A program made the translations under genes and the position numbers. This document shows, in pieces, positions 3,123 to 37,873 of a stretch of DNA of 44,525 nucleotides. The first letter of the stretch is position 1. Every line of letters begins with the position of its first letter. This DNA is from an uncultured Candidatus Saccharibacteria bacterium. Its GTDB lineage: Bacteria; Patescibacteriota; Minisyncoccia; Phycocordibacterales; JACOZG01. Where the stretch lies: NCBI GenBank assembly GCA_964648765.1, contig CAZYLF010000001.1, positions 434,107-478,631 of the forward strand. The letters run 5' to 3'. The notes under the pieces are model-generated. The model did no database searches. It was not told the origin of the DNA and saw only the letters and a list, made by a program, of their open reading frames with translations.

Positions 3123-3602
3123 ATGACTTCGACTGCAAAATGGGATATTCCACCGAAGGCGAAGGTCTACGAAGCCCTCAGCGCAGTTGCTGATGGTCGT
3201 GTCACACTGGGTCAAGAATGCAAAGCAAAAGTCGTATCCTCATCTTTGGACAAGTCTTATGATGTGTCATGGTCTGATGATAAACGCGCTTTCTTTTCCA
3301 ACGACAATGCATCTTTCTGGCAAGGCTATCTCGGGTACCCAATAATTGCGGTACTCTTAAGTCTAAAGGTCATACCGTTCGATGAATCAATCGCAAAGGC
3401 TTTGGCCGGGATACCATGGAAGAAGCTGAATACGAAATTCAAGCGAGATTACGAAAAAGCAGTTGACCATGTCTTATCCAATCTCCAAACAGCCTCAGTA
3501 GCTCGCGAGGACATTGAGCAAGAGGTACAGCGAATCCATGAGGCCATTAAATGTTTAGAGCTAGAAAAATTTGGTGCAGGCAAGAAACGGCCGCCGATCT
3601 AA
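3123..3602 (+). CDS. Hypothetical protein (159 aa) with one hydrophobic segment; first gene of the TIR-like cassette
   Basis: Track ORF. Ends 25 nt before the next co-directional gene. Hydrophobic stretch 'GYLGYPIIAVLLSLKVIPF'. No family recognised. Confidence 0.55.
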   Translation: MTSTAKWDIPPKAKVYEALSAVADGRVTLGQECKAKVVSSSLDKSYDVSWSDDKRAFFSNDNASFWQGYLGYPIIAVLLSLKVIPFDESIAKALAGIPWKKLNTKFKRDYEKAVDHVLSNLQTASVAREDIEQEVQRIHEAIKCLELEKFGAGKKRPPI

Positions 3603-3627
3603 GCGAAAACCTGAAATTTAACTGAGG

Positions 3628-4647
3628 TTGAAACTGGTGCGTCCTAGAATTTTCTTGGCCTCTGCCACTCCCGACTTAGAAATTGCCGAGACTATTCAGG
3701 AAAATCTCGAAAGAGATTTTACCACTACGGTATGGAACCAGGGCGTTTTTACACCGTCGACCTATCCTCTTGAGTCATTAGAAAATGCATTAGCTCAAAA
3801 CGCTTTCGGTGTTTTCATCATGGCCCCGCATGATGTTATCAATTCGGGAAAGCGCAAGAAGGTGGTTGTACGCGATAACGTCTTGTTTGAACTCGGTATG
3901 TTTTTTGGACGGCATGGTCGCCACCGTTCATTTCTCATTTCCCCAAATACGTTTAAGAAAACAGACCTAGCGAGCGATTTACATGGGCTGACGCTCTGTC
4001 TTTATGATGCTGATCGTTTTGCAAAGGAGCCAGTCCCTGCAGTGTCTGTGGCATGTACACAGGTGCGGCGCGCCATCCGCAAGATGGAGAGTAGTCTAGC
4101 AGCCGATCCGGGCGCGTTACGTAATGACGTATTTCCACAGTTTAATGATACATTTGCGGAGTTGTTGAAGAGTGCACAATCATTGACGACATGTTTTATC
4201 CATTCCAGAAGATGGCGAGAAAACCATAACGACGCGATTAAGTCATTTCTATCACGTTCCGGCACATCGCTAACCGCCTTTCTACCGAACTTAACTGACA
4301 GAGAACTCATGCGACAATTTGTTCGTCATTTCGAGGACGGACCATTTATCGCAGGCTTTGTTAAGGACGCATATGTGTATTTTGCGAAGCTGAGTGCCGC
4401 CTATCCGGGCCAATTACAATTGCGATCCTATCGGCTGTATCCCACCTATTCATTTTACAAGTTTGACGATAAAGCCGTCATCGCCCATTATCCACTAAGT
4501 ACCATTAAGAAAGACGTACCCACTACGTTGATATCTATGTCTGGAACATTTGGAAGTTTTTTGGCGGCAGATCTGACTTGGCTAGAGAAACATGCTCATA
4601 AGCTGTCAAAAAAAGAAATTCAGGATCTAGTACCTAAACGTAAATGA
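3628..4647 (+). CDS. TIR-like nucleotide-binding domain protein (CAP12/Pycsar-effector type N-terminal domain) with unassigned ~170-aa C-terminal domain
   Basis: N-terminal ~130 aa 'RIFLASATPDL..FGVFIMAPHDV....VVVRDNVLFELGMFFGRHGRHRSFLISP' matches the hallmark 'fAivlltpDD...RdNVlfElG.f.G.lGr.rv' of the Pfam TIR-like/CAP12-PCTIR family. TTG start at 3628 after 'tgagg'; alternative GTG at 3637. Confidence 0.65.
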   Translation: MKLVRPRIFLASATPDLEIAETIQENLERDFTTTVWNQGVFTPSTYPLESLENALAQNAFGVFIMAPHDVINSGKRKKVVVRDNVLFELGMFFGRHGRHRSFLISPNTFKKTDLASDLHGLTLCLYDADRFAKEPVPAVSVACTQVRRAIRKMESSLAADPGALRNDVFPQFNDTFAELLKSAQSLTTCFIHSRRWRENHNDAIKSFLSRSGTSLTAFLPNLTDRELMRQFVRHFEDGPFIAGFVKDAYVYFAKLSAAYPGQLQLRSYRLYPTYSFYKFDDKAVIAHYPLSTIKKDVPTTLISMSGTFGSFLAADLTWLEKHAHKLSKKEIQDLVPKRK

Positions 4648-4882: not shown

Positions 4883-6472
4883 TCAGTTGGCTTTGAACCA
4901 GCGGTTGGGCAGGAGTGGTTCGAGTTCGTTGACCGGAGTGGCGGGGATTCGGGTCAGCACATAGCGCAGGTAAGCGAACGGATCAACCTTGTGTCGTTGG
5001 CAGGTGGCGATGAGACTGAAGAGCACGGCGGCCGTCACTCCGCCATTGTCGCTGCCGCAGAAGAGCCAGTTCTTGCGCCCCAGGGCCACGCGGCGCAGCG
5101 CGTTTTCGGCCGCGTTGTTGTCGATGTTCAAATCGCCGTCGGTGGTGTACACGTTCAACGCGTCCCACTGATTCAGCGCATAGGTAAACGCCTGGCCCAT
5201 CGGGCATTTGGGCAGCACCGGCCCACCGCGTGCCGCCTGCTGTGACTCCAGCCAGTCCTTGAACTGACGTAAACGCGGCACGGACTTTTCCTGGCGCGGA
5301 CGCTGACGGCCCGGTGCGGCAAGTTCCTTCGCTTCGATTTCCACGTCATAGAGCAGCCGGATGTAGGCCAGCGCCTGCGTGCTCACCGCAGCGTCCGCAT
5401 TCCGCGCATCGTAAAACTTGCGGCGAGCGTGCGCCCAGCACGCGACCTCGGTCACCTGCCCGCCCGCCGCACCCGCATAGATGCCGTCGTATCCGCCGAA
5501 CGCGTCGGCCTGCAAAAAGCCGCTCCAACCCGCAAGGAATTTTTGCGGACCGTCGCGATTACGCGCCGGGGTGTAGGTGAACACCGTGCAGGGATGGGAC
5601 CGGTCGCCCACATAGACCCAGAACCGGCCGGTGCGCGTGCGATCGAGCTTGCGATCCAGCACGTTCACCGGCGTGTCGTCGGTGTGGATAACCCGGGACT
5701 GCAGAACGTCCGTCACCATCCGGTCATACAGCGGCCGCAGCAGCGCCGCGCACTGCGCCGCCCAGTCGCACATCATTGATCGCGCAATCTGAATGCCGTG
5801 CCGGGTCAGGATGTGTTCGAGGCGATACAAGGGCAGGTGGTCTGAATATTTACTCACGATCACATACGCCAGCAGACCCGGTGCGGCCAGGCCCTTCGCG
5901 ATGGGTGCCGGGGGCCTGGTGGCGGTCACGATTTGCGGTCCGCCTTCCGCAGCCTGCGCTGCGCAGTCGCGGCAGGCGTATTTGAGCCGGATGTGTTCCA
6001 CCACCGTCAGCTTGGCCGGCACGTAATCGAGTAGTTCGCTGATCTCCTGTCCGATGACGTGCCGCGCCTTGCCGCAGCAGGGACAGGGCTTTTGCTCTTC
6101 CGGCAGGTCATGATAGAACTTCTCCCGCGGCAGGTCCGACGGCAGGCGTCTGCGTCCGTGACCGTTGGTGGAAGGTACTGCGGGCGCTGCGGCTGGTGCA
6201 GGCGCAGGCGTCGGCTCCGACGATGACGTTGGCGGGGCCAGTTGATTCAGGATCGCTTCGAACAGCAGCATATGCTGAGGATCGATCTTCTCCGCGGAGC
6301 GGCCGAACATCCGCCGCAGCAACTGCTGCAGTTGCTGCTGCAGGCTGTCGATCTCGCGATTCTTGATATGCAGTTGCTCAAGGAACTGCTGACGCTCGGC
6401 ACGCAGGAGCTCGACTTCCTGTCGAAGCTGTGCCAGTTCCGTGTCAGGCATGATCGGACCGTCCGTGGTCAT
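4883..6472 (-). CDS. tnpC: IS66-family transposase TnpC
   Basis: 529 aa. N-terminal leucine-zipper-like 'LRAERQQFLEQLHIKNREIDSLQQQLQQLLRRMFGRSAEK', zinc-finger 'CPCCG', and 'HTDDTPV'/'WAHARRKF'/'NAAENALR' motifs typical of IS66 TnpC. Confidence 0.9.
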   Translation of the reverse strand: MTTDGPIMPDTELAQLRQEVELLRAERQQFLEQLHIKNREIDSLQQQLQQLLRRMFGRSAEKIDPQHMLLFEAILNQLAPPTSSSEPTPAPAPAAAPAVPSTNGHGRRRLPSDLPREKFYHDLPEEQKPCPCCGKARHVIGQEISELLDYVPAKLTVVEHIRLKYACRDCAAQAAEGGPQIVTATRPPAPIAKGLAAPGLLAYVIVSKYSDHLPLYRLEHILTRHGIQIARSMMCDWAAQCAALLRPLYDRMVTDVLQSRVIHTDDTPVNVLDRKLDRTRTGRFWVYVGDRSHPCTVFTYTPARNRDGPQKFLAGWSGFLQADAFGGYDGIYAGAAGGQVTEVACWAHARRKFYDARNADAAVSTQALAYIRLLYDVEIEAKELAAPGRQRPRQEKSVPRLRQFKDWLESQQAARGGPVLPKCPMGQAFTYALNQWDALNVYTTDGDLNIDNNAAENALRRVALGRKNWLFCGSDNGGVTAAVLFSLIATCQRHKVDPFAYLRYVLTRIPATPVNELEPLLPNRWFKAN

Positions 6473-6532
6473 GCCTCCTGATACGCGCCAGGCGCGCGAA
6501 GGTTTGAAAAAACCTGGAATTTTTTGATATTT

Positions 6533-6910
6533 TTACGCCGTGAGCGTGAAGCGTTTGCGGCGCTTGATGCTGGTCAGATCGATGCCCGCCAGCAGCATGG
6601 CCAGCTCGCTGGCTTAAAGCTCAACGCTCGCGCCCGCCGACTTGGGCGTGGGCAGACGGAACGTGCCTTCTTCGAGCCGCTTGTACCAGATGGCGTACCC
6701 GTCGGTGTCCCAGTAGAGAATCTTGAGGCGATCCTTCCCGCGGCCAGTGAACAGGAACAAGTGTTTGGAGAGCGGATCAAACCCCAGCGACTCGCGGACC
6801 AGCGCCGCCAGAGAATCAAAGCCCTTGCGCATGTCGGTCGGAGTCGTGCACAGGTAAATACGCACGCCCGCGCCCGCGTCGAGTTCGCCCAAACTTGGCA
6901 GCTTCAACAT
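6533..6910 (-). pseudogene. tnpB: IS66 tnpB interrupted by an in-frame TAA (codon 99 of 125)
   Basis: Track ORF 6614..6910 reads '..VRIYLCTTPTDMRKGFDSLAALV..ILYWDTDGYAIWYKRLEEGTFRLP', typical of IS66 Orf2. After the TAA at 6614-6616 the same frame continues 'ASELAMLLAGIDLTSIKRRKRFTLTA*' (stop 6533-6535). That is the expected conserved TnpB C-terminus. Confidence 0.75.
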
Positions 6911-6951
6911 GCGGGCGCCTCCGCATGGCGGAAGTTCGTCGCACGCAGTAC

Positions 6952-7198
6952 GCCGAGCACGTCGGACAATGCCTGCCGATCCACCGGACCCACGCCAGTG
7001 GTGATGGTCCGCGCAGGAAGGCGGCCGTTGCCGACCACTTGCCGATGACCCTTCTCGTCCACGATGTGCTGGTGCGACTCCAGCCAGTCCGCCACTTCCG
7101 CTTCGATAGCCTAGCCCAGAGTCGCTGGGCGCCGCTTCGCAATACTTCGGTCAGCACGTCACCGGAATTCGCGCTCGGCATCGCCAGCGCAGTTGCCA
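6952..7198 (-). pseudogene. IS256 (Mutator)-family transposase N-terminal remnant with frameshift and stop
   Basis: 'MATALAMPSANSGDVLTEVLRSGAQRL' then, in a shifted frame, '*AIEAEVADWLESHQHIVDEKGHRQVVGNGRLPARTITTGVGPV'. Together these match the conserved N-terminus 'LTEVLReGArrLLaqAvEAEV..fL......e.G...vvrNG.lPeR.i.TG.GpV' of IS256-like transposases. Cut off at the IS66 boundary. Confidence 0.55.
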
Positions 7199-7562
7199 TA
7201 CTCTCTTCCATTCGGCGTACTCCTCTGCCCGTGTGGGGGGACGGTTTCGTTGCCTGAAAACGCACACCGAAAGTATGCGGCCTTCTTCAAAACGCTATCC
7301 ACAACTTTGGGTTATAACTCTGGAAGGAGAGGATGCCCGGCTCGAGGATTGACTCAGGCGCGCTGGAATAGAGCGCCTGAGTTACTTCTCAAGTGCGGCA
7401 TGTGGATAACGGGCGGCTGGGCCTTGCAGTCAAGAAACCAGTGACTGCATTGCGACGTCATGGCCCGCATCGTATAGACCCCAGCCAGCTTTCCAAGTAC
7501 TAGTTCCCTGCTTCAAACGGCAAGGGGCTTACGCCTCCGAGTGGTACTCACTAGCATAGTAT

Positions 7563-8597: not shown

Positions 8598-9196
8598 TTC
8601 CAGCTACACAACGGCCTCTAGATCAAGAGATTCTCGTACTTGGCATGCAGTACGGCAAGCTACGAGGGGACACTTGCGCTCATACGGCCTATTAAAATAG
8701 TCGACGTTTGGGTGAGGCCGAATTGAAGCATGAACCATTACGCAATTTCCCCACGATCCCCCCTTTGACGGAACCTTGTTCATAGATGCCTCTCGGTCGT
8801 GAAATCAAAATTGAACGGAGCATATAAGAATCCTTGACGTCTCGCACGTGGCTTGTTAAACTCCATTAGGGCTGATCTTTTCGCGAAGATGACGTTGCAC
8901 TCTGCTTTAAAGGGCAGCCCTCACCTATTTAAGTGGTGGGAGGTTTGCATTCTCGTGAGCCGCTTCTTGTTGGAACGAGGCACCGATTTGCGATCGGCCA
9001 GTCGTTGCGCACCAAGTCAACAATACGACAAAATATCTAGCTCATCATGCTTCTTGCGGTCGGTTCGATATCGATTGCTTCCTTCGACCAAATAGATCCC
9101 TGAGGCAGAAGTCTACCGCCCAATTAGCTGGCAGAATTGAGCTTGCTCAACGTGGAGTGAGCACATACTGCCAACTAATTGGTAAGGAGAAGACAA

Positions 9197-9505
9197 ATGG
9201 CACCCTGGCTAGCCGACGCATTGCAACTAGCACGGTCGAACTATTTCCCAGTTTCATCCTGCGACGAGGCGCTAAAAACGGTCGCTCTCTTGAGTGAGCG
9301 AGATCCAAAGCACATTTGCGCGCTGTCCAAGAAGCTACAGGTGTCGACTGGCCGATACGCTTCAGACATCCGACTGCTCTATCGCGATATCCCATCACAC
9401 GCGCGTGTGCCAGTGCACTTCATGTTTAATGTAGAGCGACTCAAGGTGATCGCCACCGTGAATAACGTGATGCACGTATTAATAAAGAATGCGATAATAG
9501 GGTAG
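9197..9505 (+). CDS. Hypothetical protein (102 aa)
   Basis: Track ORF 9179..9505. ATG at 9197 is preceded by AAGGAG (9184-9189). Followed by a 10-bp hairpin terminator at 9527-9555. Confidence 0.4.
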   Translation: MAPWLADALQLARSNYFPVSSCDEALKTVALLSERDPKHICALSKKLQVSTGRYASDIRLLYRDIPSHARVPVHFMFNVERLKVIATVNNVMHVLIKNAIIG

Positions 9506-9526
9506 AAGGAAGCGGGTAATGATCTA

Positions 9527-9555
9527 GGCGCAGCACAATGTGCTGCGCCTTTCTT
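9527..9555 (+). terminator. Rho-independent terminator-like hairpin
   Basis: GGCGCAGCAC-aat-GTGCTGCGCC (10-bp perfect stem) followed by tttctt. Confidence 0.5.
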
Positions 9556-9646
9556 GTGTAATCGGACCCCTCACGTAGCACACCCTCGCTAGAGGCATTT
9601 CAAAATATTGTCGATTGCGGGCTGGCAAGGTGGCGACTTTCCTGGC

Positions 9647-9860
9647 TCCGTCGGTGAACTGAAGACCGGCGATCACGTCGGTCACGAGCACTGAACCGTT
9701 CAGCACGCTCCATCAGTTTGAACATGGTCAGGCACGCGAGGCGCGAGTCCGATCCTTTGCTCTTGCGATGCCGCAGCCGCACGGTGGCGACAGTCATTCA
9801 ATCGAAGCTGGGAAGATATGGATCCAGTGTTTGGCACGTCGCGATTCATCGTCCCTCTAT
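9647..9860 (-). pseudogene. IS256 (Mutator)-family transposase C-terminal remnant, frameshifted
   Basis: Across shifted frames: 'KHWIHIFPASIE', 'TVATVRLRHRKSKGSDSRLACLTMFKLMERAER', 'LNGSVLVTDVIAGLQFTDG'. These match the conserved C-terminus '..HW.hlRTtNpIES.fATVR.R..ktKG..s....l.MvFKL...Ae.rWr.L.G...l..Vi.Gv.F.DG'. It abuts the stop of the 774-aa gene. Confidence 0.55.
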
Positions 9861-9879: not shown

Positions 9880-12204
9880 TCAGCTATGCGCCTGAATATC
9901 CTTCTCAATCCGATCGAGCTTGGCTTCCATGACTTTAACTACTGCAGTACTGGGAATGGACATTCCTGCCTGGTTCGCGCATGCGTATTCGATATGTGCC
10001 TTGGCAAGGGCGAAGTAGCGCTTTCTAGCCTCCTTATCAGCAATTTCACCTAGCCGCGCATATTGCCAATATGCGACACCGACAGTATCCCGCACTTCGG
10101 AACTGGAGTCATCTAGCTGTGGCTCCAAAACGGTGACTGCTGATCTAAAAGCCTCATTTGCAAAATCGGCCGAGTTCAGTCCCTCAGCGAACCAACCAAG
10201 AGCAGTGACATAGTTGTTGGTAATACGATAACGAACACTATTCGAGGTACTACCAATAGCCGGGCTATCATCATCTAACGGTGTTCTTTCAAGAAGCTGC
10301 ACAAAGGCGTGCGCTATTTGTTGCGCTTTTGCCAAGTCCGGCGTTTGCAGCTTCCAAGCAAGTGCATCTAACACTAATGTGTGACACTCTGTTAGAGGAT
10401 GATTGTGCGTATTCCGTCGCCGCAATCGCTCAGCTACTTTGATATACGTTCTCGGATCGGAGGGACGATCCCTGAGTATTCGGCGGTAGTCCACTAGGTT
10501 CGCAAGAAACTGTATTGCATCAGTATTCGCCACTCCGCTAGAGCTAGGCTCACTTTTCAATAGGACTTCCGCTACATCGAGCTTATCAAAGAGAATTAAT
10601 AGCAGCGTGCCCACGATGACCGCGTCCGCCGAAGACAGCTGGTACTCCTCCATTCCAAAAAGCGTGAGTAGTCCCATCAAACTCTTGCGCGCCGCATTTA
10701 AATGCTCAGATGTGATCTTGCTCGGATCTAGAGAACCTAGAGATCGGAGTGTACTTCGCACTTCCTCCACTTGGCCAAAGGTGGTGCGCAGCAAATACGG
10801 GAACTCCCGAATAAGGCCCGCATTACCCACCAGGAAAGACCGATCCACGACCGTCTCGATATATAATTTCAGTAACACATAAAGCGCGTTCTTAATCCCA
10901 GCCTGCACGTTTTGCTGCGCCGCCAGCAATTCAACGTCGAGCACACGGCTTTCTTCGGAACGCACGAGCTGGATGAGAGAGAGAGCATTTCGGATAACAT
11001 TGTCGGACCGGAGTTCGCTCGGTAGGAGAAGGGTTCGCTGTAGTGATAATGCGAGGTTGGCCCAACTGCCCAGCAGCTCTTCAATGGCCGACCAGTCAGA
11101 ACGGGTCGTAGGGGAAGGCGGCTTAGAGACTAAAGCCGCTGCATGCGGGGCAAACCACTTGTGATATTCGAGGCGGCGAATCAGTGCAGTTCGTGCCTGG
11201 CTATCGGCCGTAGATGTTGAGCCTGTCCAATGAGCGAGAAATAATACTATGCAAAACGGATGTCTGAGGAGTGACGTCTGCAGTTTTTGGCCCTTCACGG
11301 TTAGGGTTAATTCAAGTGCATTAGCGAAGGATGAAGCGGCGGGACGATAAAAGCGATGTGCGGATGTCAATAGGTAGACAACTTCCCGTTCACCGTGGCT
11401 TTGCAACCAGCTATTAAGCTGGGTGACTCGGAGGAGTGCCTTTGCGTCGCGTTCGCAGGTGCGATTTGTGCGCGGTGGTCTGCCTTCGTTAAGCTGCTCG
11501 CGATGTTGCGCGGTGCGGCTGACATGATCGTAAAGATTATCATAAAGTAGTTTATATTGGCGGTCGACGTTGTTGCGCCCGGTGGTATCCCACGCCGGGA
11601 GGAAGTGGTTTAGATCAGCGAAAGTGCGCCCAAAATCAATTACAAGTGGCTGTTGGTTACGTCGATAATTAAGCGCATGAGTTACACCAAGCGACACGAT
11701 AGCTGAAAACTCAGAGCGCAATAGATGGACCAGCTCTTCACGCTTAGCGGTAAACCAGCTGTCGTCTTCAGTCGTTGTAGCGTCGTATGCCGTTTTCAAC
11801 ACCGGGTACTCTGACTCTAGACGGAAAACTTCGCTGCGCAGTCGATTCAAATCAGTTTGTACGCCAGTAAGTTTCAGAAACGCCGCATGTTCCAAGAACT
11901 CCTCCATGTACTCGGGAAGCAAGATTGGCAATTCAAGGTCAGGCTTTGTTGTTAGGTCAAAGAGCAGGTACGCCATCGCAAATATACTCTCCAGCGCGGG
12001 AGCCGGCCCATTGGAATCCACCGGCCAAGGATGAAGAAAGTTATGAATTTCATTGAAGTCAATTGCAAAGCGGATTTTGTACCCCGCCTGTATTAGGTGC
12101 TGGTCGAATAGTAGGTCATTACAATGCTGTGCCGTCTTACCAAACCAATCCCGGAGGGCAAGCAATTGCCGGGGAGTGCTAGATGAATCATACGTTGGTG
12201 CCAT
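9880..12204 (-). CDS. Hypothetical 774-aa protein, third gene of an uncharacterised three-gene operon; helical/TPR-like C-terminal part
   Basis: Long uninterrupted ORF. ATG at 12204 lies 4 nt after the stop of the upstream gene. The C-terminal region '..AYWQYARLGEIADKEARKRYFALAKAHIEYA' looks TPR-like. No catalytic family recognised. Confidence 0.75.
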   Translation of the reverse strand: MAPTYDSSSTPRQLLALRDWFGKTAQHCNDLLFDQHLIQAGYKIRFAIDFNEIHNFLHPWPVDSNGPAPALESIFAMAYLLFDLTTKPDLELPILLPEYMEEFLEHAAFLKLTGVQTDLNRLRSEVFRLESEYPVLKTAYDATTTEDDSWFTAKREELVHLLRSEFSAIVSLGVTHALNYRRNQQPLVIDFGRTFADLNHFLPAWDTTGRNNVDRQYKLLYDNLYDHVSRTAQHREQLNEGRPPRTNRTCERDAKALLRVTQLNSWLQSHGEREVVYLLTSAHRFYRPAASSFANALELTLTVKGQKLQTSLLRHPFCIVLFLAHWTGSTSTADSQARTALIRRLEYHKWFAPHAAALVSKPPSPTTRSDWSAIEELLGSWANLALSLQRTLLLPSELRSDNVIRNALSLIQLVRSEESRVLDVELLAAQQNVQAGIKNALYVLLKLYIETVVDRSFLVGNAGLIREFPYLLRTTFGQVEEVRSTLRSLGSLDPSKITSEHLNAARKSLMGLLTLFGMEEYQLSSADAVIVGTLLLILFDKLDVAEVLLKSEPSSSGVANTDAIQFLANLVDYRRILRDRPSDPRTYIKVAERLRRRNTHNHPLTECHTLVLDALAWKLQTPDLAKAQQIAHAFVQLLERTPLDDDSPAIGSTSNSVRYRITNNYVTALGWFAEGLNSADFANEAFRSAVTVLEPQLDDSSSEVRDTVGVAYWQYARLGEIADKEARKRYFALAKAHIEYACANQAGMSIPSTAVVKVMEAKLDRIEKDIQAHS

Positions 12205-12208
12205 AAAT

Positions 12209-13075
12209 CTAACCCGTAGCAGCTTTACTCATTGCCCGAAGGCGCTCTGTGAGTTCTTGAGGTGACCAGGTAGAGGTGACTTTGGGATTTTGGCCTAGAG
12301 TGAAGCCGGCATCCCTTAAGAAACTGTTCCAGCTACTCGCTAGGGGAAGAGAACCTACTTCTTCACTGACTGCTCGCTCAAGGTGTCTCATGAACGACTT
12401 GAGATGACGAGTATTCCGAAGACGTTTTAGGAGTTGCCGAAAACCAGCGACAAGTTCTTCAGTTGCAGGACTACCCGAGAGCAAGACAACAGGAACGGCC
12501 TCAAGAAGTTCATGGAGTGACCATAGTGGGCCGAAAGCGCACCATACTCCAAGTGCTGAAATGGCGACTTCTAATATACGTTCGTCGTGAGCCCTTGAAT
12601 TATTTCGTAACATCGCGTGGCGGATTATCCACGGGCTTGTCCTCTCCCAATCATGCACAGTTGCGGCTACCGACCATTGCGCCTCACGCAAGAGCCTACG
12701 TTGCGAATCGACTGAATAATCAAAAGCCTCATGACATAGGAGATCATTAAAGCGCAAGAGGCCCCGATAGTCATTAATTGCCTGCGCAAAGAATAATAAT
12801 TCAGAACCAAATGCATCTGATTGGCGTTTGGGATGGTAAATGCCATATAGACTTGCGACTGCTTCTTTGATGGTGGCTTGAGTCATCTGATGGGCGATGG
12901 TTATTTCGGGACTACGGCCCTGAATGAGCTTGATCAACCGCAAATGGGCTAAGTCGCCTTGGCAAATGCATTCCGGTTCTGTACGATTGAATGTCAAAAG
13001 GCGCATGGTCCAAACCGAAAGCGCGGGCGGAGGGAGCTCTTGCAACTTATCGAGGAGACTGACTAGTTCAGTCAT
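12209..13075 (-). CDS. Hypothetical 288-aa protein, second gene of the three-gene operon
   Basis: Its start overlaps the stop of the upstream gene by 4 nt (ATGA at 13075-13072). Predicted mostly helical by eye. No family recognised. Confidence 0.7.
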   Translation of the reverse strand: MTELVSLLDKLQELPPPALSVWTMRLLTFNRTEPECICQGDLAHLRLIKLIQGRSPEITIAHQMTQATIKEAVASLYGIYHPKRQSDAFGSELLFFAQAINDYRGLLRFNDLLCHEAFDYSVDSQRRLLREAQWSVAATVHDWERTSPWIIRHAMLRNNSRAHDERILEVAISALGVWCAFGPLWSLHELLEAVPVVLLSGSPATEELVAGFRQLLKRLRNTRHLKSFMRHLERAVSEEVGSLPLASSWNSFLRDAGFTLGQNPKVTSTWSPQELTERLRAMSKAATG

Positions 13076-13986
13076 CGCATCCTCTGCTGTATTAAGCCCA
13101 ATAACAAGGGTTCAGATTCGCTTGGAGGGGCGATTCGTTCAGCCACTCCAAGTCGTTTAACACTCACAACTGCCTCCCGCAGTGACATCGAAGGATGGAC
13201 CCATTCTCGAACGCCATCGAATGCGGTAATTGGGGCCTCATGTGACAAATAAACTGTACGGCCACTTCTTGGTAATTCGACTAGGCCAGGCATGAAGTAC
13301 AAGAAGCCCTTTGAATCCCAGATCGAGGGGACGTAAAATTCCATTACACGCTCGGACAGCTCGATTTGCCAAATCCCCTCGAATGCGTCGTCAGGTACTC
13401 CAGGATGAAAAGGTCCAAAGAACGGCTGGCCAACCGCTCTCATTGTGTCCCAACCGCGGGTAACGGACGCTTCTGAAATCCCTAGCTTCTCGGTGTAGTC
13501 CGCGAGCTCTGCCGAATCTGCCACCCAAAAGTAGTTTCCGCCACTGCTGCGGAGTAGCGCCGCTGGGTCAAAATACCTCCAAGTCCAGCGATCACCGTCC
13601 CAAGAATTCTCGACCAAAAATTGGATGCTGTCGGCCATCGATTTGTTATTTGTCGGATCAACTGGCCGTCCATATTTATGTCTCCCTAGAGTCAACTCGT
13701 GCTTTACGCGAGGCAATAGGCAATGCTTAAAAAGCTGATGTGCGGTTCGAATCACGCAAAAATGAGAATTAGGAATCTCGCCAATTAAATATCCAGATGG
13801 GGAATCGAAGTGGCCTCCGATTGCTAAGAGTCCCTCACTAATTCGATCCGGGTCGGAATTGCAGTGTGTACATAGGCCATCAAAGTGTATTTTACGCCAT
13901 TCACGAGTATTGTCAAAGCGTTGATCCGCTTCGACCAAGGTCAGAAACAGACGTCCTCTGTTCGAAGCGGGCGAGTTAAAGGGCAA
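13072..13986 (-). CDS. Hypothetical 304-aa protein, first gene of the three-gene operon
   Basis: Track ORF with a ~350-bp upstream non-coding region. No family recognised. Confidence 0.7.
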   Translation of the reverse strand: MPFNSPASNRGRLFLTLVEADQRFDNTREWRKIHFDGLCTHCNSDPDRISEGLLAIGGHFDSPSGYLIGEIPNSHFCVIRTAHQLFKHCLLPRVKHELTLGRHKYGRPVDPTNNKSMADSIQFLVENSWDGDRWTWRYFDPAALLRSSGGNYFWVADSAELADYTEKLGISEASVTRGWDTMRAVGQPFFGPFHPGVPDDAFEGIWQIELSERVMEFYVPSIWDSKGFLYFMPGLVELPRSGRTVYLSHEAPITAFDGVREWVHPSMSLREAVVSVKRLGVAERIAPPSESEPLLLGLIQQRMR

Positions 13987-14691
13987 CTGTATGTTACTCC
14001 AGCAAAAGTCGCGGGCTCACCAAAATTGCGGCAACCGCTTAATCGTCTAAATGCCAAAATCATTGCGTCTATGACAAATTCCATTAATCACATCGGGGAC
14101 GAATTGGCTGGGTTTCTGCCCCATGCACCATCCAAGTTAGATTGGGCCGACGGTGTCTGGGTTGCCATTCCGCTCGTTACTCCGCCGCAGTGACGGGAAA
14201 CAAGCGCTGTCAAGATTTCCTATTAACGCTGCTCTCGATTTGGCATAGTTGTCACCGCAGTGATCGCCTAAGAGTAGCGATATTTCCGCATGTAGTGCTT
14301 ACTTGAGGACGACATCTACCAATTCCGGATTTCATAATGACGAATCGGGAGGCACCGCGCGCTTTGATACTTGATTTGAAACTCCCGGGTCCCAAGTTAA
14401 TTCGACGTCAGCGGAATCGGGATCGATTTGCCAATGCTATTGTGCAGGCCCGAACACATATGTTAAGAAACCGTGAACGGTTTAGAGAATCAAAGAACCG
14501 CTTGCGGATTATGACCAGGGTTGAATTAGAAATCAACGAAACTCGATTAGCTGTCGTTTTCAGCAAGGCAACCGCATTCTAGCTTTGTGAACTGGTTGCA
14601 CTGGCACCCGACCAAAACCACCACCTGTGAGGAGGCTGAAAATGCGGGTGGTCAGTGACGGAGGAACTGTCAGCAGACCGAAAGATTTAGA

Positions 14692-15180
14692 ATGCGGTTG
14701 CTCTGGTTATCGGGCGGGCAACGGAATTCTGCGATGCGTTTTAAACTGTCGCGGGATAAAGGTGAGCGAGAGGGCTTGGAGGCAGTGAAGGAACTCGGTG
14801 TCGATCAGGCTGACTTACTTAGCTGTCGGCGCTCATTTAGCAGGCTCTTTCGTCGCGGGGCTTACCCTCCGCTTCGCGGCACTGTGCTCAGCTTAGATCA
14901 GCGACGCCACGTTCTCTACTCCAAGGGAAGTGTCGATTTCTTTCAAACCTATCCTGGCTTGTACGTCCCTCTCCCCCTAGAGGTTGAAATTGAGACGGCA
15001 GAGCAGGCACCGGAGGCCCTATTACGGGAGATGCTCGCCTTGACCAAGATGAACTGGAACAGCACGCAGTTTGATCACGCGGAGCCGATTACGCTTGTTG
15101 CGGCGTCGCAAGTCGGCGATATTCTACGATACTTGGCGCCAGACGAATCAATCCAACCGCGTTACAGTTTCTATATGTAG
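14692..15180 (+). pseudogene. C-terminal PIWI-domain fragment of a prokaryotic Argonaute (remnant)
   Basis: 'EREGLEAVKELGVDQADLL..RLFRRGAYPPLRGTVLSLD..VLYSKG..FQTYPGLYVPLPLEV...LLREMLALTKMNWNSTQFDHAEPITLVAASQVGDIL....RYSFYM*' matches the last ~120 aa of pAgo PIWI domains, including the LTKMNWN block and an aromatic-rich C-terminus. Frames upstream (about 14200-14690) are broken by stops, with no MID or N-terminal PIWI recognisable. Confidence 0.55.
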
Positions 15181-23278: not shown

Positions 23279-23352
23279 GGGCCTATAGTAAAGTGGTATT
23301 ATGCGGCATTCGCATTGCCGAGGCGCGAGTTCGATTCTCGCTAGGTCCACCA
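23279..23352 (+). tRNA. tRNA-Ala (anticodon CGC), CCA encoded
   Basis: Hand-folded cloverleaf. Acceptor GGGCCTA/TAGGTCC with the G3:U70 alanine identity pair. D-stem GTAA/TTAT with GG in the loop. Anticodon stem CGGCA/TGCCG, loop TTCGCAT. T-arm GCGAG-TTCGATT-CTCGC. Discriminator A, then CCA. Confidence 0.9.
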
Positions 23353-35968: not shown

Positions 35969-37873
35969 CTACAAAAGTGTCTGTGGGTCAACCTCGATTC
36001 TGAAAGCCGGAGGCACTAAGTAGAGGAGTGGTAGCAAATCTTTATTGGGCCAAGTTTTCGGATCGAGACGTAAAATTGCATGGGCCACGTACTCACCAGC
36101 CATTCCGCCTGTAGACTCAAAGATATCCGGGTTGTAATCCTTTAGCAACTTTTCAAGCTTCCGCATATCGGCAAGCACTTCAGTTTGCGTGCCAGTGCGA
36201 GTGATTTTAATTAGGAGTTTAAATGGTGGGTAATCAAAGCGCTCGCGATCTTTAATTTCATTCCGGTAAAATTCCATAATATTGCCGCTCGCTGCAAGTT
36301 CAAAAAATGGCCAATCAGGATTTCGGGTTTGGATTATAAATTGATTTGTGGTTAGTGCGCGGAGTTTGAGGAGAGTTGTAAAAACCTTTTCACTAATCTT
36401 AAATTCAGGTAGTGACATTAAGGCATCAAGCGAGGCAATATAGACGTTATCAACTTTTGACTGGATTAAATTCACGGCCATTTCAGTACCAATTAAAATC
36501 CCACCAGTATTATAAAATTGCTCCACTACCACTTCCGCCTCTTTACGATTTGGAGTATGGTCACTATCTACTTGATGAATAGAAGCTTCCGGAAAAGCGA
36601 GACGTAACTGCTCAGCAACTTTTTCTGCCCCCACGCCCAATGGGATTAAATTCCAACTTTGGCAGTAACCACAAAATTCTTGCGCGCTCCTGATTTCATG
36701 GCAATGATGACAAATAAAAATATTATTTGCCTTTTCTTTTTCCGTTTGTTTGCCTTTGTGGAGCGTAACGGGCATAAGGCATTTAAGGCAAAGCACGGCT
36801 CGTCCGCAATCTCGGCAAGACACAATTGGCGCCAAGCCTCGCCGGCCACTCCAGATAAAAATCTTTTCACCGCGCGTGATGGCCTCACTAATTTTTTTCA
36901 ATAACTTTTCACTTATTGCGTCAAAGCTTTCTGCTTCTGGACGATTTTTAATATCAATCACGCTTGAAGTAGCCGTGGTGAAGGCGCGATTTTTTACCGT
37001 GGCGGCATTTTGATATTTGCCTTGCTCAAAGGCATACATTGTTTCAACTCCAATTACGTCTGCGCCTAAAATTAATTTAGCCTTAATTTGTGAGGCAAAG
37101 TTTTCAGCAAAAAAGCGAAAGCTAAAAAAGGGCCGTTTGAGTGTTTTGTAACTATCTGAACTCTCATCCTCAATAATTATCGTTTTAATGTCGTGGCGAG
37201 GGAGGGAGAGAAAGCTCGGTGTGGCAATTATTAAAACCGGATGCTTTTCACTTAAAATTTGATTCCAAGCTTCCAAAATCTTTTTGGTTGGTAGCGAGCC
37301 AGAGAGGGCGTAGGTGTACTCTTTAATACCACGGTCAAGTATTTTTTTTAGATGCTGCACGTGGCTGGTGGTGGGGCAGACCACAAACACCGAGTGACTG
37401 CGGGCAAACTCCTCCCGCACCAAACTTTTATAAAAAATCAAACGCTCTTCAAGAGGTTGTTGGAGCACGAGCTTTTCACTTTTTATACTTTCATTTGCTT
37501 TTCCGCTACTTTCAGCCGGAGGCACGTTTTCAAGATTCTCTAAAATTGCTTTAGGGATCGCGTTTTTTAAAATTTGCCCAGTATAACCAGCGTAGTGGGT
37601 GGCGGTGGTGTTTGCCACTTCCACAAACTCTGGTCTAAGCAAACCAACGTTTTCAATTTTTTCTACTTTTTTTAAACTAAAACCAGCGCTTCGGAGTTTG
37701 CTTTTGACTTCGGCCACGTCTCTAACGGTCGTTACAATTGCTTTAACTTTTTTGTGTCGCACGGTGATCTCAATCATAGCGCCAGGGGCTACCGCTTTGG
37801 CGGTAAAGTAAGATAAAGTATCGCGGAAAATATTGCCTTCAAGAGGTACTACCTCAATCGCTTTCATATCCAA
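35969..37873 (-). CDS. priA: Primosomal protein N' (PriA)-like protein with degenerate helicase motifs I and II
   Basis: PriA-like N-terminal 3'-DNA-binding region, and the Cys cluster 'CRDCGRAVLCLKCLMPVTLH...ICHHCHE...CGYCQS'. Where Walker A (G.TGSGKT) is expected the sequence reads 'LQQPLEERLIFY'. Where DEEH is expected it reads 'IIIEDESSDSYK'. Confidence 0.75.
   Translation of the reverse strand: MDMKAIEVVPLEGNIFRDTLSYFTAKAVAPGAMIEITVRHKKVKAIVTTVRDVAEVKSKLRSAGFSLKKVEKIENVGLLRPEFVEVANTTATHYAGYTGQILKNAIPKAILENLENVPPAESSGKANESIKSEKLVLQQPLEERLIFYKSLVREEFARSHSVFVVCPTTSHVQHLKKILDRGIKEYTYALSGSLPTKKILEAWNQILSEKHPVLIIATPSFLSLPRHDIKTIIIEDESSDSYKTLKRPFFSFRFFAENFASQIKAKLILGADVIGVETMYAFEQGKYQNAATVKNRAFTTATSSVIDIKNRPEAESFDAISEKLLKKISEAITRGEKIFIWSGRRGLAPIVSCRDCGRAVLCLKCLMPVTLHKGKQTEKEKANNIFICHHCHEIRSAQEFCGYCQSWNLIPLGVGAEKVAEQLRLAFPEASIHQVDSDHTPNRKEAEVVVEQFYNTGGILIGTEMAVNLIQSKVDNVYIASLDALMSLPEFKISEKVFTTLLKLRALTTNQFIIQTRNPDWPFFELAASGNIMEFYRNEIKDRERFDYPPFKLLIKITRTGTQTEVLADMRKLEKLLKDYNPDIFESTGGMAGEYVAHAILRLDPKTWPNKDLLPLLYLVPPAFRIEVDPQTLL

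Follow-up and report, generated by a model that had tools for sequence, protein, structure and literature searches.

A tightly coupled operon of three orphan genes

The window, as we call the whole 44,525-nucleotide stretch of uncultured Candidatus Saccharibacteria DNA that was analysed (contig CAZYLF010000001.1, positions 434,107 to 478,631 of the forward strand), carries on its minus strand three closely packed genes, designated A, B and C. Their products could not be tied to any known protein family, and their order is conserved in other, independent genomes. The genes, the regions distinguished within the large protein C, and the elements lying immediately beside the operon are as follows.

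13997..14000, minus strand: GGAG, a Shine-Dalgarno-like motif 10 nt upstream of the TTG of gene A, read from the sequence
13072..13986, minus strand: gene A, open reading frame (ORF) of 304 amino acids (aa) with a TTG start, encoding an orphan protein
12209..13075, minus strand: gene B, ORF of 288 aa, encoding an orphan protein
9880..12204, minus strand: gene C, ORF of 774 aa, encoding the large subunit
11155..12204, minus strand: N-terminal domain of C, residues 1-350, delimited from an AlphaFold2 (AF2) model and the alignment
10648..11154, minus strand: central helical region of C, residues 351-519, from the alignment and a low-confidence helical model
9880..10647, minus strand: predicted TPR-like alpha-solenoid of C, residues 520-774 and the stop codon, from a model and weak profile matches
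9179..9505, plus strand: small convergent ORF downstream of C

The stop codon of A overlaps the start codon of B by 4 nt (gcgATGAct), a gap of 4 nt separates the stop of B from the start of C (TAG-ATTT-ATG), and the sequence AGAGGA is found ahead of the ATG of B. The coordinates and sizes of the three genes, the ATGA overlap and the 4-nt gap had all been given in a first-pass annotation made from the sequence, and every one of them was confirmed. That annotation had also quoted two peptide motifs from protein C. The first, IRFAIDFNEI, is present, but it occupies residues 44-53 and not the very start of the protein, where it had been placed; the second, ERDAKALL...VVYLLTSAHRF, corresponds to residues 251-285. 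The chance that 774 random codons would run without a stop is about 7e-17, and homologs are found in the same order at other loci, therefore A, B and C are not chance ORFs.

A, B and C were compared with Pfam, NCBIfam and PADLOC at E values (E) up to 1, and these searches returned nothing beyond isolated noise, nor was a known family matched among sequence profiles of the Protein Data Bank (PDB). When 16 C sequences and 17 A or B sequences were scanned individually, the sole recurring weak match was to TPR; A and B had no Pfam or PDB relative in the searches run. The earlier statement that the three proteins bear no recognisable signature is thus borne out, and none of them could be assigned to a known metabolic or structural family, an assignment that would have spoken against the earlier proposal. 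Because no tie to any known family or system was detected, A, B and C, together with the modelled N-terminal domain of C described below, are new in sequence and fold space as far as the searches run extend.

A near-consensus sigma-70-type promoter (TTGACA-16-TAAAAT, 11/12 positions; window 13916..13889, minus strand) was noticed within gene A. It was rejected as the promoter of the operon given its location inside the conserved coding part of A, where it could either act internally as a promoter or be fortuitous. At the other end, a perfect 11-bp GC-rich hairpin (AGGCGCAGCAC-AAT-GTGCTGCGCCT, window 9526-9550) lies between the small convergent ORF and the 3' end of the operon and may be a bidirectional terminator. 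Terminal repeats that would make the operon a transposable cassette were also considered and discarded, as no direct or inverted repeats bounding it were found in the window.

Conservation of the A-B-C order at other loci

The same gene order recurs at seven other independent loci from metagenomes or metagenome-assembled genomes (MAGs). In the eight triads, the window included, protein identities are 15-35%, the host GC content ranges from 38 to 66%, and the intergenic gaps from -11 to +24 nt. The proteins keep similar sizes throughout, of about 300, 300-400 and 750-830 aa for A, B and C respectively, as can be seen from the individual loci (A / B / C).

L001: 313 / 298 / 806 aa
L003: 332 / 308 / 801 aa
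L008: 298 / 311 aa for A and B, with C interrupted by the contig end
L010 (and L011): 334 / 330 / 799 aa
L013: 314 / 306 / 790 aa
L015 (and L016): 322 / 402 / 753 aa
L097: 324 / 341 / 823 aa

Within a core subfamily, each of the three proteins is clearly homologous to its counterpart in the window, with pairwise identities of 27-54% and E values from 1e-16 to 1e-105, and profile searches with hmmsearch over the collected loci gave E values down to about 1e-188 for the core A, B and C. Homologs of gene A itself, at 27-53% identity, were found at L001, L003, L007, L008 and L010. The first and second genes of three distant triads are related to one another (L013_A with L097_A at E=2e-5; L013_B with L097_B at E=8e-10), and their relation to the core genes lies at the limit of detection. 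Using hhalign, the distant B aligned with the core B profile at E=0.001, co-linearly over 139 columns, and the distant A aligned with the core A profile at E=0.085, also co-linearly and with RSGRT placed against WG[RK]T; the cross-controls for these comparisons gave E values of 0.3-0.4.

A-B-C is therefore a conserved operon, or gene module, present across independent and divergent genomes. Co-occurrence of the three genes elsewhere had been proposed in the first-pass annotation as a check, and seven further loci now answer it. Its description of a tightly coupled operon of three unknowns is likewise supported by the junctions, by the spacing kept at the other loci and by the lack of family matches.

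One further locus, L007 (1-4853), shares with the window the small convergent ORF found downstream of C (24% identity over 96 aa, pairwise E=3e-11). In addition, a 63-bp stretch upstream of A in L007 (369-430) is 81% identical to window positions 9602-9664, downstream of C. This match was examined as a possible terminal repeat and rejected, being a fragment of a neighbouring gene; it indicates local rearrangement.

The family is rare. When 1.84 billion cluster-representative proteins were searched exhaustively with a HMMER profile, 16 relatives of C were found, all of 750-830 aa, and a word-indexed search of 5.8 billion proteins found two. No family member was found in the GTDB species-representative genomes scanned, and two pattern scans of JGI metagenomes gave no further loci. 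There were no relatives among PLSDB plasmids, INPHARED phages or IMG/VR, and an origin from a phage or plasmid was rejected on these grounds. No mention of the source accessions was found in the literature.

Protein C: a predicted domain without known fold and a helical tail

An AF2 model of the N-terminal domain of C, built with 15 diverse family members, reached a predicted local distance difference test score (pLDDT) of 83.8 and a predicted template modelling score (pTM) of 0.85. The domain is predicted to be mostly helical, with four strands (residues 43-48, 274-279, 298-303 and 306-311) in a sheet that includes a hairpin. Fifteen sequences that are 16-38% identical to the window C all keep the same six polar residues, D34, D49, E102, D253, N264 and R314. 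A Foldseek search with this model against the solved structures of PDB and the viral ones of BFVD found no match (best E=1.6, template modelling score (TM) below 0.2). The N-terminal domain is predicted to be a catalytic or ligand-binding module with no detectable known fold.

Protein C had previously been described as loosely PIN-like, and a fusion of a divergent PIN RNase domain with TPR repeats is an explanation that would overlap with the conflict reading weighed below. What C has in common with VapC-like PIN nucleases is the linear order D...E...D...(T/S), with the residues placed at strand ends and helix starts. D49 stands at the end of strand 1 and E102 within a helix, while D253 is near the start of a helix that leads into a strand; a conserved T/S follows that strand, and distant members add an acidic residue behind it (SDA, TED, ADD). 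However, no PIN-clan family was found with Pfam at E values up to 10 in 16 full-length C members, and 15 cores from which a helical insertion of about 130 residues had been excised matched neither PIN nor any other Pfam family, nor any PDB profile. The confidently modelled domain also found no PIN structure at E values up to 10 in PDB and BFVD with Foldseek, a search in which local structural alignment could suffer from the long insertion. The PIN fold is a three-layer alpha/beta/alpha arrangement around a five-stranded parallel sheet, whereas the sheet predicted for C has four strands with a hairpin, and the fourth acidic position of PIN nucleases is S or A in the window C, with D or E in distant members. 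PIN membership was rejected on the profile and fold searches, the likeness appears to be one of residue order only, and we regard a hidden PIN nuclease as quite improbable.

The central region of C carries the subfamily motif W-x-NLALSLQ. Right behind the N-terminal domain, a cysteine cluster of the form C-x3-7-C-x5-9-C, sometimes with four cysteines, is found in the relatives P0003, P0014-P0020 and P0022, and it is absent in the window C, P0002 and P0011-P0013 (alignment columns about 470-530). This cluster may be a zinc-binding element that was lost in the window C and its nearest relatives.

In the tail of C, N663 and T707 do not vary, and D602 hardly does. A full-length model of C made from three sequences had a pLDDT of 48.6, which is too poor for the N-terminal and middle regions; in this low-confidence model the last 230 or so residues (540-774) form an entirely helical solenoid with a pLDDT of 60-88. 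The top Foldseek matches of the full-length model were of TPR type (EMC2, Craspase TPR-CHAT, AimR, LGN and IFIT1), with E values of 0.036 or higher, and a PDB profile search with the C-terminal part found only designed repeats and TTC8. No TPR hidden Markov model (HMM) matched the window C above its curated threshold; among the relatives P0014 did best, scoring 27.1 bits with TPR_10, for which the cut-off is 27.5, and TPR_12 was weakly matched in three of 16 members. The TPR-like helices that had been noted at the C-terminal end are thus recovered as an all-helical solenoid, but the TPR matches stay below threshold and the structural ones at the E values just given. The tail is predicted, from the model, to be a sensor or protein-interaction module.

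This arrangement, a large protein with a putative N-terminal catalytic module and a TPR-like tail, is shared with TPR-sensor immune proteins (Avs/STAND-TPR, Craspase TPR-CHAT/Csx29, AimR/RRNPP), and Craspase TPR-CHAT, AimR, LGN and IFIT1 are among the top matches of the weak model. C differs from them in having no NTPase, CHAT or helix-turn-helix (HTH) domain, in matches that do not go below E=0.036 or above a TM of 0.22, in an N-terminal domain with no PDB or BFVD counterpart, and in its two dedicated orphan partner genes.

Invariant residues in proteins A and B

Across six homologs of A, 11 polar residues are invariant: D21, N26, T27, Y105, E160, D224, R240, R243, T244, E261 and R302. From this pattern A looks enzyme-like. 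The invariant residues of B are mostly aromatic or hydrophobic (W22, W143, W149, W178, Y80, F96 and F109), and B looks more like a scaffold or an adaptor.

Horizontal transfer of the triad

Wherever the flanks are visible, an anomaly in GC content coincides with the three genes.

L010: triad 60.2% GC, flanks 67.6 and 67.9%
L015: triad 51.1% GC, flanks 58.6 and 60.4%
L097: triad 41.6% GC, flank 50.5%
L003: triad 58.8% GC, flanks 63.7 and 66.4%
Window: triad 50.3% GC, against 42.3% in the housekeeping part to the right of tRNA-Ala

The distribution of the family is rare and patchy over host contigs that span the wide GC range given above. Given that the GC trough or peak is confined to the triad, A-B-C is, judging by its composition, a unit that has been transferred horizontally as a whole.

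A foreign island around the operon

In the window, the GC content is about 50-53% over at least 23 kb to the left of a tRNA-Ala(CGC) gene (23279..23352) and about 42% to its right. The left part of at least 23 kb, which includes the operon, looks like a foreign island. Among the genes of the right part are tag and rsmE, along with ones of type II/IV secretion F and priA-like type. The best matches of the window RsmE, at 41-47% identity, are nearly all from Saccharibacteria, Paceibacterota and other Patescibacteria MAGs, from which the host is probably a divergent member of the candidate phyla radiation (CPR). The defence and mobile elements recognised in the island are the following.

About 14745..15177, plus strand: 5'-truncated remnant of a short class-I prokaryotic Argonaute (pAgo), PADLOC pAgo_I at E=1e-50, profile positions 318-455 of 455
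3628..4647, plus strand: TIR gene of CAP12/Pycsar type, 339 aa, whose N-terminal 150 aa match CBASS/Pycsar TIR models at E=1.6e-42
4883-7260, minus strand: apparently intact IS66 insertion sequence (IS) element, with a 529-aa transposase (4883..6472, minus strand) carrying four IS66 Pfam domains

The first-pass annotation had placed the operon among defence and mobile remnants, and the pAgo remnant, the TIR gene and the IS66 element within a foreign island support this setting. The decayed Argonaute that it described is real by the PADLOC match, but what is left is only the C-terminal 140 or so aa of a short pAgo, that is, the end of its PIWI region, with some 50% identity to pAgos of Rhizobiales plasmids. 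The TIR-like cassette is confirmed at 3628..4647; it extends over 3123-4647 (plus strand) and consists of a gene for a UCP014422-family protein (159 aa) followed by that of the TIR protein, whose 185-aa C-terminal half is uncharacterised. A TnpB_IS66 gene has been called for the IS66 element in identical Logan contigs. An IS256 remnant said to abut C could not be demonstrated: there was no Pfam match, and the two best tblastn matches of the frame-stitched fragment, while IS256 transposases, had E values of 0.4 and 3.

We also considered A-B-C as the partner of the neighbouring Argonaute and rejected it, as the pAgo gene is truncated, on the opposite strand and about 760 bp away from A. The 750-760 bp that separate the remnant from gene A gave no match, and no pAgo is encoded at the other triad loci. 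In short pAgo systems (SPARTA/SPARSA), by comparison, the known partner is an upstream, co-directional APAZ-effector, unlike the opposite-strand arrangement of the window.

The island also holds a gene for a CHAP-domain protein, one for a secreted trypsin-like protease and one for a response regulator with an HTH domain. Such a large defence and mobile island is unusual in a CPR genome. In the right part of the window, a gene of the type II secretion system F (T2SS-F) type (31098-32871, plus strand) is split into two adjacent ORFs of 261 and 278 aa, each with a T2SSF region, and in a PriA-like ORF (35969-37873, minus strand) only the 3'-DNA-binding domain was detected. These could be frameshifts, pseudogenes or divergent CPR versions of the genes.

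Neighbourhoods of the family elsewhere

At L014, a C homolog has as its neighbours Gabija (GajB, E=4e-255) and an integrase-like gene of 438 aa. At L015, a group-II-intron-type reverse transcriptase gene and ParB are found behind the triad, with an integrase 10 kb upstream, and at L003 a CapP/ImmA-like M78 peptidase is encoded nearby. At L010 (7401-7491), some 500 bp ahead of the triad and at the edge of the GC trough, ARAGORN reported an odd tRNA-like element of 91 nt with an undetermined anticodon, which may be the relic of an integration site or a false positive.

Interpretation of the A-B-C module

Because the triad bears a signature of mobility and has defence or mobile neighbours at two to three loci, we tentatively read A-B-C as a horizontally mobile conflict module, directed against phages or other mobile elements and with C as the sensor-effector, a reading to which we give somewhat less than an even chance. 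The tight coupling of the genes is kept across phyla, from which we infer that their products would form one complex. In such a complex the TPR-like solenoid of C would recognise a protein or peptide cue, and the output reaction would fall to its N-terminal domain of new fold, with D34, D49, E102, D253, N264 and R314 perhaps supporting divalent-metal-dependent phosphoester or nucleotide chemistry. A would then probably be a second enzyme or an activating partner, and B, rich in Trp and probably helical, would link A to C. The more specific proposal, of a three-component immune system with a new-fold D-D-E-D-N-R effector, a TPR sensor and two orphan partners, scattered by horizontal transfer through unrelated phyla, is one that we consider doubtful.

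Orphan defence systems obtained by mining of defence islands (PADLOC PDC, Gabija, Septu) resemble A-B-C in being compact, co-directional operons of unknowns that are horizontally mobile, and the A-B-C family sometimes adjoins defence genes too, namely Gabija at L014 and the pAgo and TIR remnants in the window. In contrast to those systems, A-B-C is, with 16 C members in 1.84e9 proteins, far too rare to have surfaced through enrichment statistics and its role in defence is putative, and none of the 5027 models of PADLOC-DB v2.0 matches A, B or C at E values up to 1. Several further observations, along with this last one, weigh against a conflict module. L007, the closest relative (52-54% identity), keeps A and B without C, and the triad is thus not obligatory; the distant C at L014 (P0021) is preceded not by A and B but by a 264-aa membrane protein with two predicted membrane segments (L014 7556-13754). 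The neighbours at L010 and L097 are housekeeping genes (PilZ, ATP synthase epsilon, 2-oxoacid dehydrogenase, ABC transporter). With about ten loci in total, an enrichment statistic is not meaningful. Finally, a nuclease or phosphoesterase chemistry of C is suggested by residue types only.

Some of these observations would fit a non-conflict accessory complex, that is, an enzyme complex scaffolded by the TPR-like protein and serving regulation, the envelope, proteostasis or niche metabolism, which would have been laterally transferred and lie near defence remnants by chance. L010 and L097 are the two best-resolved loci outside the window, PADLOC has no match for any of the three proteins, TPR solenoids are generic interaction modules, and the family is absent from the phages, plasmids and IMG/VR searched. 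On the other hand, a sparse and taxonomically scattered distribution with a GC anomaly confined to the triad is typical of selfish or defence cargo, Gabija adjoins the family at L014, pAgo and TIR genes lie in the window, and no metabolic family was matched. We consider an accessory complex of this kind rather unlikely. The compositionally foreign, self-contained nature of the unit, its tight translational coupling at all loci and the IS elements, intron and integrase genes associated with it could instead point to a selfish addiction or maintenance module, similar to a tripartite toxin-antitoxin system, in which C or A would be toxic, the others would neutralise it, and post-segregational killing would maintain the genes. 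The retention of A and B with loss of C at L007 is what would be expected if C were dangerous. Nevertheless, typical toxin-antitoxin components are far smaller than these proteins, in which no HTH or other antitoxin-like DNA-binding domain was found, and the module is on no sequenced plasmid or phage searched, and we regard such an addiction module as improbable.

It could also be asked if the operon in the window genome is simply an inactive passenger that decays along with its neighbours, given that the island holds the truncated pAgo and other fragments and that the window C lacks the cysteine cluster of most relatives. All three ORFs are nevertheless full length in comparison with their homologs, and every family-invariant residue, the junctions and the Shine-Dalgarno-like motifs are intact, which makes a decaying passenger very improbable.

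With so few members, the family is of limited general impact. Should A-B-C be a conflict system, as we tentatively propose, it would represent a defence mechanism with three components and an effector fold that lack described relatives, and one of the rare cases of defence-type cargo described from what is probably a CPR (Patescibacteria) genome. It would also illustrate that systems too rare for defence-island statistics may still be recognisable through synteny, compositional anomaly and confident structure prediction. Even if its role is not in defence, the confidently modelled N-terminal domain of C, for which neither PDB nor BFVD holds a match and in which six polar residues are invariant, is a good target for structural work and enzymology.

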